A stretch of DNA of 63,746 nucleotides, counting the filler, from Candidatus Nanoarchaeia archaeon (lineage in GTDB: Archaea > Nanobdellota > Nanobdellia > Woesearchaeales > DATDTY01), in the NCBI GenBank assembly GCA_035290625.1. It is 5 parts of 5 records of this genome, joined end to end, with 100 filler letters (N's around TTAATTAATTAA, not from the genome) between each part and the next. Parts side by side here need not be neighbours in the genome. Positions count along the whole stretch, not along the records: positions 60,296 to 63,746 come from DATDTY010000053.1; 4 more parts are not named here. One strand, 5' to 3'. Positions 9,246-63,746 of this stretch are shown here, in pieces; the stretch's first letter is position 1, and every line of letters begins with the position of its first letter. Position numbers and translations under genes: made by a program. A model generated the notes under the pieces. The model was given only the letters and a program-made list of their open reading frames with translations. It was not told the DNA's origin and ran no database searches.

Positions 9246-9980
9246 ACGTCGAACTTTCATATTTCTCCAAAATCGCCTCCAGGTTAATTTTCTTTTGATG
9301 TGTACTTGATTGCAACATTAAGTATGAAGAAGGTTTATCGAATTGCGACCAGTAAAATCCCGTTGATCCTGCGGGAGATTGCTGCTATTAGGATTCGACT
9401 AAGCCATGCAAGTCTTCTCGCAAGAGAGGCAGAATGCTCAGTAACACGTCGATAATCTACCTTTAGGTCAGGGATAACCTTGGGAAACTGAGGGTAACAC
9501 CTGATAGGATATGAGTATTGGGACATCTTATATCTGAAAAGCAGTGCCTAAAGATGAGTCGGCGGTCGATTAGGTCGTTGGCGGGGTAATGGCCCACCAA
9601 GCCAAAGATCGATAGGGGCCTTGAGAGAGGGAGCCCCGAGAAGGGCACTGAGACACTGGCCCTAGCCCTACGGGGTGCAGCAGGCGCGAAAACTCTACAA
9701 TGCACGCAAGTGTGATAGGGGAATCCTAAGTGCTCATGTTTAACATGGGCTTTTGCCAAGAGTAAATATCTTGGCGAATAAGTGGTGGGTAAGACAGGTG
9801 CCAGCAGCCGCGGTAACACCTGCGCCACAAGTGGCAATCATAGTTATTTGGCCTAAAGCGTCCGTAGCTGGTTCATTAAATCTTTTGTGAAATTGTTTGG
9901 CTCAACCAAACAGCGCGCAAGAGAGACTGGTGAACTTGGAACCGGGAGGAGTCAGAAGTATTCTTGGAGTAGCGGTAAAA

Positions 9981-10024
9981 CAAACTCGCTGCGTTCATAA
10001 CTGTGAACGCAGTGGTTTTTACAG
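9981..10024 (+). other. 44-nt BHB-type intron in 16S (near E. coli position ~696)
   Basis: Helix GTAA/TTAC with AAC and AGT bulges; excision restores GCGGTAAAATGTTATAATCCC. Confidence 0.8.
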
Positions 10025-10220
10025 TGTTATAATCCCAAGAAGACTACCTGTGGCGAAGGCGTCTGACCAGAACGGATTCGACAGTGAGGGACGAAAGCTG
10101 GGGGAGCAAAACGGATTAGATACCCGTGTAGTCCCAGCCGTAAACGCTGCGAGCTAGATGGTGCATATTCTTCGAGAATGTGCAGTGTCGAAGCGAAGGC
10201 ATTAAGCTCGCCGCCTGGGA

Positions 10221-10277
<57 letters not shown>

Positions 10278-10418
10278 CGGCGTGCGGTTTAATCTAATTC
10301 AACGCAGAAAATCTCACCAATGGCGACGGCAGGAAGAAAGTCAGGCCAAAGGTCTTACTTGACGAGCCGAGAGGTAGTGCATGGCCGCCGTCAGCTCGTG
10401 CCGTGAGGTGTCCTGTTA

Positions 10419-10461
10419 AACTCATGAAGGGAGTACTAAACGAATGTCGTGAGTGACAGAA
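10419..10461 (+). other. 43-nt BHB-like intron in 16S (near E. coli position ~1093)
   Basis: Helix CTGT/ACAG with TAA and AAA bulges; excision restores CCTGTTAAGTCAGGCAACGAGCG. Confidence 0.85.
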
Positions 10462-10753
10462 AGTCAGGCAACGAGCGAGACCTGTACGTACAATTGCTAA
10501 CGACTCATTTTGAGGATTGAGTACATTGTACGGACTGCCTTCGAAAGGAGGAGGAAGGTGCAGGCAACGGTAGGTCTGTATGCTCCGAATCTATTGGGCT
10601 ACACGCGCGCAACAATGGTAAGGACAATGGGTTACAACTCCGAAAGGAGAAGTTAAACCTCGAAACCTTATCGTAGTTCAGATTGAGGGTTGGAACTCAC
10701 CCTCATGACGTTGGAATCCCTAGTAATCGAGTGTCATCATCGCTTGGTGAATG

Positions 10754-10789
<36 letters not shown>

Positions 10790-10864
10790 ACCGAGCAGGG
10801 TTTAGGTGAGTATAAGGTTTTTACCTTATCCGAACCTAAGCTCAGTGAGGTGGGTTAAGTCGTC

Positions 10865-10907
<43 letters not shown>

Positions 10908-37673: not shown

Positions 37674-38615
37674 TCAGCCAAACGTGCCTGACCGCCACCG
37701 CCTCACAGCCCCAATCTCATTGCGAAAGAATACGACGGGGTCATTCGGCATCCAGTGGACAGATGAGGTCTCGATGACAAAAGGCGCGGAAAGCCGTCTT
37801 ACGGGATTGAGAAGCCTCTGTTCATCCTCAGTAAGCAGCGAAAAGGGCTTGTGCCTTGCTCCAGTTACAGAATCGTTCCCGCTGAAGTGAACATACGCAA
37901 TATCCGTTTTAAATTCTCTAAGCAGACCGAGCAGTTCCTCAGGTGAGATTGTCAAGGCATGCGTCGTATCAAGACAGAGCTTCATTCCTGGATTCATATC
38001 CAAAATTGATCGGTACAGAGAGAAAGGCAGCTGGTATTGTTTAATAGTATTCTCAATGCAGAGGATAGTGCGGGGTGATACGATGCCGAGCGAGTCAGTA
38101 ATCATGCCAAGGTTAGCGGGCTTGAACATATGCAGTACAATATGCCTTGCCCTAATCCGGGCTGCAATATCCCCAATCTTCTGCATAAAAGGGGTGTCTT
38201 CAGCTCCATAGAAAATCCTCCTTCCATCATCCCATTGCCATGGCGCATGAATGCTGTTGCACCGAAATTGCATCAGCACCTCCCATTCATCATCTGTCAG
38301 CTGAAATGTGGCTACATCTTGAGGCTGTGCAAAGGTAAGCTCAATGCCGTCAGCTGGAAGCCGCAGTGCAATTTTGGTGTCGAGTGCTGTATCTCTGCCG
38401 GTGAGCGCCGTATTCCCCTTGCTACTCTTGTAGAAGTTTCCAGTCGCAAGGCAGACTTCACCTGAGCTCAACAGCGTCACCCCGGTGTATAGAATCTGCC
38501 CCCCCTTCGTTAACTTCCAGCACATACTGCGCCGGCGCGTCCGTAGTAATGAGTGGACAGGGATCAACCCTGCATGGAAGCCCCTTTTTGACATCAAGAA
38601 CTGTGCCAGCTCCAA
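37674..38615 (-). CDS. AP-endonuclease-2/xylose-isomerase-like TIM-barrel protein (true start probably downstream of 38615)
   Basis: VLH, LCIEN, LCLDTTHA, YVHFS..D....H, VIE metal motifs. Confidence 0.7.
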   Translation of the reverse strand: MELAQFLMSKRGFHAGLIPVHSLLRTRRRSMCWKLTKGGQILYTGVTLLSSGEVCLATGNFYKSSKGNTALTGRDTALDTKIALRLPADGIELTFAQPQDVATFQLTDDEWEVLMQFRCNSIHAPWQWDDGRRIFYGAEDTPFMQKIGDIAARIRARHIVLHMFKPANLGMITDSLGIVSPRTILCIENTIKQYQLPFSLYRSILDMNPGMKLCLDTTHALTISPEELLGLLREFKTDIAYVHFSGNDSVTGARHKPFSLLTEDEQRLLNPVRRLSAPFVIETSSVHWMPNDPVVFFRNEIGAVRRWRSGTFG

Positions 38616-38901
38616 TAAAGATGATATCCAGAGGAATGAAGGTGTTCTTCATCCAGAAAGCCGGAGTAACCTCCTTCCCAAAGACAAACAACATTCCTGA
38701 GCCTGATGCTAAAGATGACCTGTTCATAAGCCCTTGGCTGCGCTCTGAATCAGTATCTGCGATCTCAATCGAAAACTGGAGTTCTCCATCATCCGTATGA
38801 ACAACGACTGAGCTTATATCATCTTGAGAGCACCCTCCTGATACAAAGAGCAAAGAGAAAAGGATACTCCAATAGATTGTTCCATATGAATGAGTAATCA
38901 T
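38458..38901 (-). CDS. DUF192 family protein, possible lipoprotein
   Basis: EIADT..ERSQGLM.R, GMLFVF, FWMKNTFIPLDIIF, YVLEVN; VSGGC lipobox-like. Confidence 0.9.
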   Translation of the reverse strand: MITHSYGTIYWSILFSLLFVSGGCSQDDISSVVVHTDDGELQFSIEIADTDSERSQGLMNRSSLASGSGMLFVFGKEVTPAFWMKNTFIPLDIIFIGAGTVLDVKKGLPCRVDPCPLITTDAPAQYVLEVNEGGADSIHRGDAVELR

Positions 38902-39293: not shown

Positions 39294-39458
39294 GGTGGCA
39301 TTGAAAAGTCATGCAGCGCCCTCTTGTAAGCCATTATAACGGAGCGGCGGCACAGCGACAAGAGGGTCGCCTCCCTCGGAGAATGTCGCTATTCTGCCTG
39401 ACTTGCGCATGGCGAACCTGGCGCTGCCGAGCGAAGCGAGCAACTTTTCAATGCCACC
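39294..39458. mobile_element. MITE-like element family A, copy 3
   Basis: Perfect TIR GGTGGCATTGAAAAGT..ACTTTTCAATGCCACC. Confidence 0.88.
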
Positions 39459-39464
39459 TTCCCC

Positions 39465-52060: not shown

Positions 52061-52996
52061 TTGCCCATGAGAGTCTCTTACCTATTATTCTTTGTTGTGA
52101 TAGCTCTAGGACTTGCAGCCTGTACGACACCGCAAGGAGGAGTCACTGTCCCTAATTCTCCCTATCAGGGCGGTTCTCAGGGATTAGTCCTGGAAATCGG
52201 GGACCTTGGAATCTTTAACGACCAAACCAACACAGAGGAGATTTTTGAAGGCGAGCCAATTCCTGTCGAGGTCACCCTGAAGAATAAGGGAGAATATGAA
52301 GTGCAGCCAGGAGAGGCAGCTGTAGATCTGCTCGGCATCTTCCAGAGTGATTTTTCAGGGCTTCCGGCAATCCGGCTTTCGAACACTGAGGCAATAGAAA
52401 AGGTTTCTGAATTCAACACTGAAGGAGGGGAGACAAGGCTAGCATTCACAGAAGGAAATGGAATGGTTGACCAGAGGCAGCTCGGGGATGCAAGCTTCAG
52501 GGATTTGAGCATTTTTACCAGGTATACCACACGCTATAAAACCTTTGCACTTGTGCCAAAGGTATGCTTCAAGGAAGACCTGCAGGATGAGAGTGTCTGT
52601 GATGTTGACGAGGTCAAGGATGTCTTCTCCTCTGGAGCTCCTATCCAGGTCAAGCGGGCGGAGGAGAGCAGGGCAGGAACTGGCCTGATTGCAGTTGAAT
52701 TTGAGGTTGAGAACGTCGGAGGAGGAGAATCAGCTGTCCATGGCCGTGCATTTGACAGCAGGTACAACGAGTTCGGGTTTGCAGTTGATCCTGCCGCAGA
52801 AGCTTCGATCTGGCAGTGCACATCGAGGGGCAGATCAGATTCTGCAAGATTTGACGCCAATGGAAAAGCGCAGATTCGCTGCAGGACAATCACTCCATTG
52901 CCGGAAAACGCGCTCTACACACGCCAGCTTGGATTGACGCTTGATTATGACTACCGGCTCATCACGCATGAGCAGGTCAGGATCATAAACCAGTAA
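52061..52996 (+). CDS. Putative surface lipoprotein (beta-rich)
   Basis: Signal peptide ending LGLAA-C; LKNKGE and FEVENVGGG Ig-like motifs. Confidence 0.7.
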   Translation: MPMRVSYLLFFVVIALGLAACTTPQGGVTVPNSPYQGGSQGLVLEIGDLGIFNDQTNTEEIFEGEPIPVEVTLKNKGEYEVQPGEAAVDLLGIFQSDFSGLPAIRLSNTEAIEKVSEFNTEGGETRLAFTEGNGMVDQRQLGDASFRDLSIFTRYTTRYKTFALVPKVCFKEDLQDESVCDVDEVKDVFSSGAPIQVKRAEESRAGTGLIAVEFEVENVGGGESAVHGRAFDSRYNEFGFAVDPAAEASIWQCTSRGRSDSARFDANGKAQIRCRTITPLPENALYTRQLGLTLDYDYRLITHEQVRIINQ

Positions 52997-61103: not shown

Positions 61104-62120
61104 ATGAATGAACAATATGCTTGCCCGGCCCATGGGCATATGCTGACAAAGGCCCTCAATGAGGATGGCACTATTGTCCAGCTTCCGGATGCCCTCAAGG
61201 CAAGAGAGCAGCATTATTACTGCCCAAACCCAGAATGCGGGATTAGGGTGGTTCCAGAGGGTGGTTGCATCAACCGGGCTACAGATTTCTATCGGCACGG
61301 ACATTTTAATGCACTCCCTGGTATTCCATGCAAACGTCAGGAGACCTACACTGGGCCAAAAAAGTCTCTTACCTCGCTTGTTAAAGAGGCCATAGCTTCT
61401 GGTCTTACCTTCTCCCGTGATTTTGATGTGGTTGAGACTGATTCGTTGTACTCCAGCTTCCATCGTAGGGGTGGGGATACGGGATATACTCCAAAACAGC
61501 CTTTTACTGTAGATATCTTTTGCCGCAGAGAAGGCCGGTATGGCATGGACACTATCCTGCATGTTGTGGAGTTGCCTCTCAAAGGATCATGCAATGACCT
61601 CTATCAAAAAGTCAGGGAAATCGCTTTTGAGCTTCCTCCCTCAAGGAAGAAAAGGGTTCTTGAATCAAATAGCGGCACACTTGAGATTGCACAGCGCATC
61701 TATCAGAATTTTATTGTTGTGATGAATGAGCATTCCTATAAACCTGCTGGCCAAAACGCAGCTGAACTTCCACCTACGGTGCATAATTTTATCGGCGATC
61801 TCTCAGGGCCTATTTATTTTTTCGACCTGGAGCATTTTATTGTTTCAGATGTGAAACTTTCAAGTCCTGAGCCTGTTCCAGATACGCCTCCTAAAAATCC
61901 CAACCGCATTTTTCATGTCCATAAGCGGGATATGCCTTACTTCAGCCTTGAGGGTATTTGGATTGGCAATTTTGCAAAAGAGCTGAGGAACTGGAAGGGC
62001 AGGAACAGCGTGCATATCACTGCCTGGAAGAAAGCGGTTCCCATACCTCTTGATATCGATGAAAATGGAAATCCTGTTTCTGTGTTCCGCAATGGTGGCC
62101 AAGGAGAGTTTTTACTTTAG
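61104..62120 (+). CDS. Hypothetical protein with N-terminal Cys/His zinc-finger-like motif (CoiA-like)
   Basis: YYCPNPECG...HF......C; later VDIF. Confidence 0.55.
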   Translation: MNEQYACPAHGHMLTKALNEDGTIVQLPDALKAREQHYYCPNPECGIRVVPEGGCINRATDFYRHGHFNALPGIPCKRQETYTGPKKSLTSLVKEAIASGLTFSRDFDVVETDSLYSSFHRRGGDTGYTPKQPFTVDIFCRREGRYGMDTILHVVELPLKGSCNDLYQKVREIAFELPPSRKKRVLESNSGTLEIAQRIYQNFIVVMNEHSYKPAGQNAAELPPTVHNFIGDLSGPIYFFDLEHFIVSDVKLSSPEPVPDTPPKNPNRIFHVHKRDMPYFSLEGIWIGNFAKELRNWKGRNSVHITAWKKAVPIPLDIDENGNPVSVFRNGGQGEFLL

Positions 62121-62129
62121 GGGATTTAT

Positions 62130-62465
62130 ATGGCACTTGACCCTGAAGCGCGTTACTCTTTACAACTTACATCTCTTATAACCAAACTCATGAGTGCAGC
62201 AGGCCTTTATTCTACTAGTCGGGGATATATGTTGCAATCCCAATATGATACTGATGTTAAGCAGTCCTCCATTTTCGTCTATGAACTCCTTAAGGCCTTT
62301 CAGGCCTACCATACTAAGAAAGACTCAGGTTCGCTGCTTGCTGCAGACCCGTCCGCCAGCATACGAAGATTTATAATTGACTCAGCGGCAGACCTCCCTA
62401 AGAATGCCCGCGATTTTCTCGACGATGTTGTTACAGAAGGCATCGGTATGTTTCATGACCGGTGA
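62130..62465 (+). CDS. Hypothetical protein
   Basis: 111-aa ORF; its stop codon lies in the target duplication of the family A element. Confidence 0.5.
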   Translation: MALDPEARYSLQLTSLITKLMSAAGLYSTSRGYMLQSQYDTDVKQSSIFVYELLKAFQAYHTKKDSGSLLAADPSASIRRFIIDSAADLPKNARDFLDDVVTEGIGMFHDR

Positions 62466-62469
62466 AAAA

Positions 62470-62675
62470 GGTGGCATTGAAAAGTCATGCAGCGCCCTCT
62501 TGTGAGCCATCTTAAAATAAGACAGCAGAGCGACAAGGAGGTTGCCCCCTTCGGGGAATGTCGCTATTCTTCCTGACTTGCGCATGGCGAACTGCTCCGC
62601 AGGAGCGACCAAAAATGCGAAGCATTTTTGAGTACTGGCGCTGCCGAGCGAAGCGAGCAACTTTTCAATGCGACC
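62470..62675. mobile_element. MITE-like element family A, copy 4 (with 42-bp insertion)
   Basis: TIR GGT(G/C)GCATTGAAAAGT; perfect 8-bp TSD GTGAAAAA (62462-62469, 62676-62683). Confidence 0.9.
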
Positions 62676-62731
62676 GTGAAAAACCAACATCTTTATATAG
62701 CAAAAACGTCTGATTTCTCTGCAGAGGTGAA

Positions 62732-63121
62732 ATGATGGCGTTCTTCCGCAAGCTGATGTTCTGGAAAAAAGACGATCTTGATTTAAGCAATCTGGGAGCT
62801 CTTGGAGCAGAGCCTCGAGCATCTCTTGGGCAGATGCCTGGCGAAATGCCTGCAGATACTGGCAGGCCACAATTTTCATATCCGAATGCCCCGGAGCTTG
62901 TCCCTCCGGCAGAGTCCTTTCCTCGGCATGGCATGGCAGGCATGGGAGCAAGCATGGGATATTCTGGCAGCGATTCCTCATTCATCCTTGCAAAAGACAT
63001 AGAAATCCTCTCGAGCAAGCTTGACGCATTGCGGGCAGGCATAGAAAGCATCAACCAGCGCCTGGCAAATCTGGAGCGCATGGCGGGAGCTGACAATCAG
63101 CAACGAAAATACCAATGGTAA
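62732..63121 (+). CDS. Hypothetical protein with C-terminal coiled coil
   Basis: GAGGTG RBS; KDIEILSSKLDALR...INQRLANLER. Confidence 0.7.
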   Translation: MMAFFRKLMFWKKDDLDLSNLGALGAEPRASLGQMPGEMPADTGRPQFSYPNAPELVPPAESFPRHGMAGMGASMGYSGSDSSFILAKDIEILSSKLDALRAGIESINQRLANLERMAGADNQQRKYQW

Positions 63122-63746
63122 GGCAGTTTGCTCTGGTAGCTTTTCTTGCAGTAGTGCTGGATCAGGCATCAAAATACATTGCACGTACGTTTCTGGGGAA
63201 TCCTGTCAACCTTGTTCCTTCTTTTCTGTCATTTGAGCTGGTTCGCAACACTGGAACAAGCTTTGGCCTTTTCCAGAACCTCAATCTTTTTTTTCTCATC
63301 ATCGGAGCTGTTTTCTCATTCGGCATTTTGCTTTGGTATCCGAAGATTCCCAAGGACAATCTCCATCAGGCAGGGTTTGCATTCATATTGGGCGGCGCGG
63401 TTGGCAATACTCTTGATAGGGTTTTTCTCGGATATGTTACTGATTTTATCTCCTTCAGCTTCTGGCCTGCATTTAATGTTGCAGACTCTGCGCTCACCAT
63501 CGGCGTTGTCCTGCTTTTGTATGCGTCTTTTCCAAAGAGATCTCCGGTTACTAGGAAAGGACAAATGACTCTGTTTTTGGTTCTTGCTCTGGCCGTCCTC
63601 TTTGCCGTCTTCTACATCTTTTTTATCCAGGGAGAGGTTACTGACATCAGGTCAGCAGGGCAGGCAACTGAGAGGATTACCGGAACCTTTGAGCTGACTC
63701 CGATCAAATCGTATGTTTCCAATTGTCTGCAGAATACTGCTGAGGC
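63115..63746 (+). CDS. lspA: Signal peptidase II (LspA) domain fused to a class III signal-peptide protein; runs off the window end
   Basis: Manual translation: LDQASK, NTGTSFG, GGAVGNTLDR, VTDFI, FNVADSA, then without a stop RKGQ-MTLFLVLALAVLF...YVSNCL. Confidence 0.88.
   Translation, partial: MVRQFALVAFLAVVLDQASKYIARTFLGNPVNLVPSFLSFELVRNTGTSFGLFQNLNLFFLIIGAVFSFGILLWYPKIPKDNLHQAGFAFILGGAVGNTLDRVFLGYVTDFISFSFWPAFNVADSALTIGVVLLLYASFPKRSPVTRKGQMTLFLVLALAVLFAVFYIFFIQGEVTDIRSAGQATERITGTFELTPIKSYVSNCLQNTAE

Follow-up and report, generated by a model that had tools for sequence, protein, structure and literature searches.

A signal peptidase II gene runs on in frame into a surface-protein gene

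The window analysed here is a stretch of 63,746 nucleotides that joins five contigs of one genome by N runs. The host is a groundwater archaeon of the order Woesearchaeales (archaeal SSU rRNA at 9356-10905 of the window), and its assembly (84 contigs, 1.37 Mb) has a marker-based completeness of 100%. At the end of one of these contigs, C53, a single frame runs stop-free from an ATG at 63115 to the end of the window (Table 1). The final 141 bases of this contig are identical to the first 141 bases of contig C44 of the same genome, where the frame continues for 275 codons to a stop. The sequence-only reading had described an LspA (signal peptidase II) with VTDFI and FNVAD motifs that reads without a stop into a class III-type site and then an ectodomain, and this arrangement is borne out: everything lies in one frame, the first part matches PF01252, and the class III region, RKGQMTLFLVLALAVLF, occupies aa 147-163. 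It had also called the ORF missed by the ORF track; the frame is indeed easily overlooked, only because it runs off the contig, but a 211-aa partial of it is present in NCBI.

Table 1. Features at the fused locus and candidate lipoprotein substrates (positions in the window)
Feature	Position	Strand	Basis or remark
Gene of 129 aa, function not assigned	62732..63121	+	Upstream of lspA, overlaps lspA start by 7 bases; ORF; no Pfam match
LspA (signal peptidase II) domain, aa 1-141; predicted to have four membrane helices	63115..63537	+	PF01252, TIGR00077, PDB matches, model
Junction: LspA tail and basic linker to Gly149	63517..63561	+	Identical in contigs of four runs and in L033/L034
Buried class III signal R147 K148 G149 / Q150, then hydrophobic helix aa 151-171	63553..63627	+	Predicted fifth membrane helix
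Ectodomain start, unnamed Nanobdellota family	63628..63746	+	Runs on to aa 439 on contig C44 (frame 2-826)
Candidate LspA/Lgt substrate, Sec-type signal, lipobox LAA/C	52067..52996	+	Among 11 scan matches; contig other than that of lspA
Weaker candidate substrate, VSGG/C	38458..38901	-	ORF; not among 11 scan matches

The entire ORF is present on two metagenome contigs, L033 and L034, where it encodes 439 and 443 aa, and six full-length database sequences of the fused protein measure 439-449 aa; the five that were aligned are identical over aa 1-210. A stop or frameshift at the junction, named beforehand as the outcome that would undo the fusion, was looked for in contigs from four sequencing runs of four studies, and the junction was free of substitutions and indels in all four (4 of 20 listed runs, compared as assembled contigs, which hide rare variants). 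The X1 contig covers the whole stretch with no difference, and those of X4, X6 and X5 cover 63095-63746, 62700-63629 (at depth 3.4) and 63497-63746, respectively; the genome assembly may derive from X1 and X4, but X5 and X6 carry no such mark. Past the window end, L033 and L034 differ from the very first base, and the contig breaks there because an allelic bubble begins at that point. The read-through of lspA into the next gene is real.

The LspA domain is complete and fits a lipoprotein pathway common in the order

The N-terminal domain matches Pfam Peptidase_A8 (PF01252) over aa 8-139 (E 3e-36, 125 bits against a cut-off of 25), TIGR00077 lspA (87.4 bits against 73.95) and the PDB entries 6ryo, 9emz and 5dir (E 2e-19 to 1e-17). 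Asp110 of VTDFI (63442-63444) and Asp124 of FNVAD (63484-63486), which we take to be the catalytic pair, align with the same motifs in S. aureus and P. aeruginosa LspA and are invariant among 18 LspA sequences, and all 15 of the 15 positions invariant in that set (besides Met1) are retained. In a structural model of the fusion, judged on secondary structure and confidence values rather than coordinates, the LspA part has helices at 2-26, 57-73, 82-105 and 122-138 and strands at 31-45 and 108-114, with a pLDDT of 86-98 per block over aa 1-140; the LspA fold, four helices and a beta cradle, is thus predicted to be intact within the fusion. The domain resembles bacterial LspA in its full-length match, its two Asp motifs, its four predicted helices, and the presence of an Lgt partner and lipobox proteins in the genome. 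It differs in its archaeal host and in about 300 additional residues at the C-terminus; the tail after FNxAD measures 16-29 residues in 38 of 44 same-order homologs. The gene is single-copy in the source genome (one match).

The sequence-only reading had asked for an Lgt and had proposed a bacterial-style lipoprotein pathway with two lipobox proteins as substrates. The search for Lgt was successful (E 7e-77; TIGR00544, 216 against 118.9 bits): an intact bacterial-type gene lies at 17706-18482 of contig C75 (L089 1462-2238), followed on its 3' side by a CGPC protein that is presumably thioredoxin-like. A genome-wide lipobox scan, run without a shuffled control, returned 11 ORFs. One of the two proposed substrates, at 52067-52996, is among them; the other, the ORF at 38901, carries VSGG/C and is not. 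Lgt, LspA and the 11 lipobox ORFs together support the pathway, as a feature of the whole order and not of this locus.

LspA as such is not exceptional in the order. Of 401 genomes of the order, 364 carry it (264/281 of high quality), and 140 of 151 carry Lgt (108/115 of high quality), according to searches that were positive in 10/10 bacterial controls and 0/4 other controls. These tallies, like that of the ectodomain family below, include genomes flagged unpublished (14 named for LspA, three for Lgt and three for the ectodomain), and we make no claim on these alone. In the parts consulted, publications of 2015, 2025 and 2026 state that archaea have no LspA or Lgt homologs; contrary to those statements, both enzymes, of bacterial type, are near-core in this archaeal order. 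The main texts of PMC8204110, PMC9258230, PMC8421398 and PMC13473441 do not mention the lspA/lgt enzymes, which their supplementary annotation tables may list. We also note that two records titled Methanosarcinales (L150, L151) have lspA neighbours as in Woesearchaeota records and group with these in a tree; the titles may be wrong.

A class III signal is buried behind four helices

Behind the LspA tail and a basic linker the protein reads RKG/QMTLF; the model places a helix at 147-174 after a short loop, and hydropathy peaks here at 3.09. As in archaeal class III proteins cut by A24 peptidases (PibD, FlaK, EppA), basic residues stand at -3 and -2, Gly at -1 and Gln at +1, ahead of a hydrophobic helix, and the Gln is invariant across 35 family members. 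The +5 residue is Phe154, as in the family consensus, and differs from EppA substrates, since the acidic +5 residue of EppA-type pilins is absent. The main difference is one of position: PMC4187195, in the part consulted, describes class III signals at the N-terminus with a usual length of 6-12 residues, whereas this site lies at aa 149, behind four helices, with the nearest in-frame ATG 147 codons upstream and the nearest in-frame TTG 13 codons upstream. The same source gives cleavage after Gly -1, with basic residues at -2/-3 and a Gln at +1 that is important for EppA, so that the cut, which the sequence-only reading had written one residue further on as RKGQ/, belongs between Gly149 and Gln150. 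Three codons in the junction are of note: TTG at 63517, which is in frame, ATG at 63521-63523 (frame +1) and TAG at 63552-63554 (frame +2).

A candidate peptidase for such a site is encoded in the genome. A PibD-type enzyme had been suggested as something to look for, and an A24 peptidase of 285 aa with a GGGD motif was found, over the cut-off of PF01478 (E 5e-18) and under that of the FlaK model (E 2e-16); as for known class III substrates, pilus assembly genes, here for ATPases and platform proteins, are also present in the genome. In LspA both termini lie on the cytoplasmic side. With this topology, the buried signal should face the cytoplasm, and cleavage of the fused product is plausible: an A24 peptidase is present, the site is intact in sequence, and the predicted topology is compatible. 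Prepilin peptidases act on class III proteins from the cytoplasmic side (PMC4187195 and PMC4343526, in the parts consulted). A class III motif scan of the genome gave 33 matches, most with a start 1-12 codons upstream. On contigs C22 and C57, short class III genes stand in tandem and are nearly identical in signal and helix; they probably encode pilins.

The ectodomain belongs to an unnamed family and varies in blocks

The family of the partner protein (aa 147-439) has matches in 116 of 401 same-order genomes at E 1e-25; the source genome holds three paralogs of the ectodomain, and the homolog P0121 is 30% identical to it over 308 columns. No Pfam family fits the ectodomain. Its neighbours in the Atlas are clusters of hypothetical archaeal proteins, mostly of Nanobdellota, and a single-sequence search returned only its own clusters. 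With the ectodomain model (pLDDT 81), Foldseek gave nothing at E 0.001, and a fold search against 48,161 chains reached a best Z of 4.5, pilins scoring level with unrelated chains, at Z 3.2-3.5 over 73-79 residues; in a profile search of PDB sequences the best match had an E of 0.019. We do not call the ectodomain a pilin because no solved structure matches it clearly. In this, and in the lack of a Pfam match, it differs from the class III proteins named above. Searches that return no clear match do not show that the fold is new.

Alleles of the ectodomain differ in sharply bounded blocks of much lower identity within otherwise identical DNA. Over the ORF, L033 and L034 differ only at codon 211 and in a block at aa 212-279 (L033 3432-3648), where 32 codons carry amino-acid changes, nine are silently changed and 27 are unchanged, with a four-residue indel. 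P0002 and P0021 differ in further blocks past aa 300, so that allelic blocks lie at aa 212-279 and about 300-436. A blastn search of the source genome found no silent donor copy of the variable block. This mosaic pattern fits recombinational exchange of blocks in a domain that is exposed, and suggests use of the partner protein; it gives no date for the fusion.

The fusion is apparently private to one species

The sequence-only reading had proposed looking for the fusion in related genomes, and every relative read has separate genes, not fused in this way, which gives no support to a conserved, evolved polyprotein. In 29 same-order genomes, and in 17 more picked for long open frames or kinship, the lspA end was read and no fusion to a class III protein was found. 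Among 56 metagenome loci, two represent this species and the other 54 are not fused this way (two end at a contig edge), and an HMM pass over 114 fetched loci with LspA placed both domains in one ORF only in the loci of this species. Searches of protein sets gave the same result: among 17 LspA-bearing proteins of 241-769 aa, the ectodomain partner occurred only in the cluster of this species (11 of the 17 were read, and the rest measure 246-261 aa), and none of the best 150 matches from 1.84 billion representatives spans both parts. A scan of genome contigs with the fused protein gave no confirmed relative among 377 candidate stretches, and one with P0031 gave six loci, none fused. Open frames reach at most 363 aa among the LspA matches listed (150 of 366). 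The fusion is apparently private to this species. Since the genomes searched include no other genome of the same genus or family, its age is bounded only loosely.

A close counterpart is an unfused pair in G001 and G136, which belong to another family (f2) of the same order. These genomes have the same three-gene order, and the homolog there matches the partner over its whole length (24% over 308 columns, E 2e-22); the difference is that lspA and the full-length homolog are separate ORFs, each with its own start and stop, overlapping by four bases. These are the only two of 29 homolog loci in other genomes in which the gene adjoins lspA; in the other 27 it lies elsewhere. In all 29 it stands alone as a gene, with an in-frame ATG 2-12 codons before the motif in 26 and none in the other three.

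A second C-terminal LspA fusion, independent of this one and likewise limited to one lineage of the order, occurs in G008 (L026 1465-2556) and G212 (L094), where a 224-residue tail of LspA holds a serine hydrolase domain (Ser_hydrolase, PF06821) and a class III signal gene follows the ORF. It differs from the present fusion in that its partner is without a class III site and in that it is common to two genomes of one genus. We also encountered a protein of 358 aa with two LspA domains in tandem (P0037).

Probable origin in a recent, tolerated merger, with a probable cut at the buried site

We favour, with moderate confidence, a recent accidental merger of neighbouring genes that has been tolerated, its product probably being cut at the buried site by the A24 peptidase. 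On this account lspA and a neighbouring class III surface-protein gene would have merged recently at a short overlap into one ORF, giving a five-helix precursor of 439-449 aa. The simplest such event would be a one-base deletion between ATG 63521 and TAG 63552. If one base is added back between them, the LspA tail ends 22 residues after FNVAD, within the usual range, and the partner gains a start that precedes Lys148 by 12 codons, the same spacing as in its closest paralog. The two codons are possibly relics of two overlapping genes. The same pattern is seen in 14% of 20,101 control coding windows, and the one-base route is therefore only weakly favoured. A point change of the stop codon is another possible origin, and would also require loss of the start of the partner. 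Two quick, unfinished and largely unresolved trees gave no indication either way as to inheritance of the adjacency and neither grouped the ectodomain or LspA with G001/G136 nor excluded them from these.

After the merger, the LspA end would lie in the cytoplasm and present the basic linker and RKG/Q where prepilin peptidases would cut. The A24 peptidase would cleave after Gly149, yielding an LspA with an eight-residue basic tail, which would continue to trim Lgt-modified lipoproteins, and a mature surface protein beginning at Gln150. Tolerance of the merger may rest on the expected cytoplasmic position of the buried signal, within probable reach of the peptidase, and the merger would persist since its cost is small, not for any added function. 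The stronger claim, that the ORF is a working two-protein precursor from which the prepilin peptidase, by cutting behind four helices, frees both the sole LspA of the cell and a block-exchanging surface protein, falls somewhat short of probable in our estimate. The sequence-only reading had posed a polyprotein split by prepilin peptidase and a recent stop loss as alternatives; what finds support is a recent, species-private merger with plausible cleavage, but not a conserved polyprotein, and the two proposals are not true alternatives.

The same merger could also leave the site uncut, so that LspA works with five helices and carries the ectodomain as an outside passenger, which would itself work, or be redundant, while unprocessed. 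The long C-terminal addition that LspA tolerates in G008 and G212 would allow this, as would the predicted integrity of the LspA fold in the fusion and the three ectodomain paralogs in the genome. We nevertheless think it unlikely, given that the site fits the family consensus at -2, -1 and +1 and should face the peptidase, and that we saw nothing blocking access.

Rather less likely still is that the two proteins are mostly made separately, with the long ORF a minor product, either because translation also starts internally, at TTG 63517 or ATG 63565, or because ribosomes slip by -1 and reach the TAG at 63552. Both in-frame start codons are present, a purine-rich stretch before ATG 63565 pairs with the 16S tail at -4.5 kcal/mol, and there are two tetramer slip candidates, at 63529 and 63535. 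Against this, 23% of 3,843 internal Met codons reach -4 kcal/mol, ribosome-binding scores of this kind separating true from internal starts poorly, the purine-rich stretch is dictated by the R-K-G codons, and TTG 63517 reaches only -2.2 kcal/mol. The stretch 63472-63552 lacks an in-frame slippery heptamer, the downstream folds are weak (-12 to -14 kcal/mol, without a shuffled control), and an internal start would leave lspA without a stop.

We give little credence to an old fusion kept by selection, in which coupling LspA to a surface protein would, for example, tie lipoprotein maturation to pilin-type processing or bring LspA close to a surface complex. In its favour, all six full-length sequences retain the fusion despite strong variation in the ectodomain, and the two genes are also adjacent in the family of G001 and G136. 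However, the DNA of L033 and L034 is identical across lspA and the junction, and the alleles therefore give no evidence of age; no second lineage with the fusion was found in the genomes, metagenome loci and protein sets searched, and most homologs lie away from lspA. Finally, an assembly or consensus error concealing a stop or frameshift is extremely improbable: the end of the contig is 200 bases away and the evidence consists of contigs, but the same junction recurs in the genome assembly, two other metagenome assemblies, the contigs of the four runs and sequences from several sources, and the contig break has its own cause in the allelic bubble.

Significance and neighbouring features

The components are known, and their fusion in one ORF is a new variant. 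A literature search, the scope of which left out most subscription journals, returned no description of this fusion, of Lgt/LspA in Woesearchaeota or of internal class III cleavage; PMC13705601 reports that type IV filament genes are scattered in Nanobdellati, and the word 'fused' is absent from the portion of its text seen. The fusion itself is a one-species curiosity, and its value is as a compact test of A24 cleavage at internal class III sites. If the ORF is a two-protein precursor, it would represent maturation of one signal peptidase by another in nature, and class III cleavage would need no free N-terminus; predictors that consider only the N-terminus would therefore miss substrates.

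Several features around the locus are worth recording. A gene with a similar C-terminus to that of the 62732-63121 product lies just 5' of lspA in most of 29 relative loci, read by eye; the product has a low-complexity middle and a conserved coiled C-terminus, and is a candidate partner of the lipoprotein pathway. Further upstream, window 61104-62465 holds ORFs of 338 and 111 aa, neither with a Pfam match, separated by a stop and nine bases, possibly a single gene that has been interrupted. Many contigs carry a dispersed repeat (about 120-210 bases), copies of which lie in the window at 62470-62678 and 39294-39459. The gene 3' of the fusion (L033 4142-5767, also on C44) encodes 541 aa with only weak Pfam matches; the outer part of its product is rich in Cys and Asp, and a membrane helix and short, repeated helical domains are also present.
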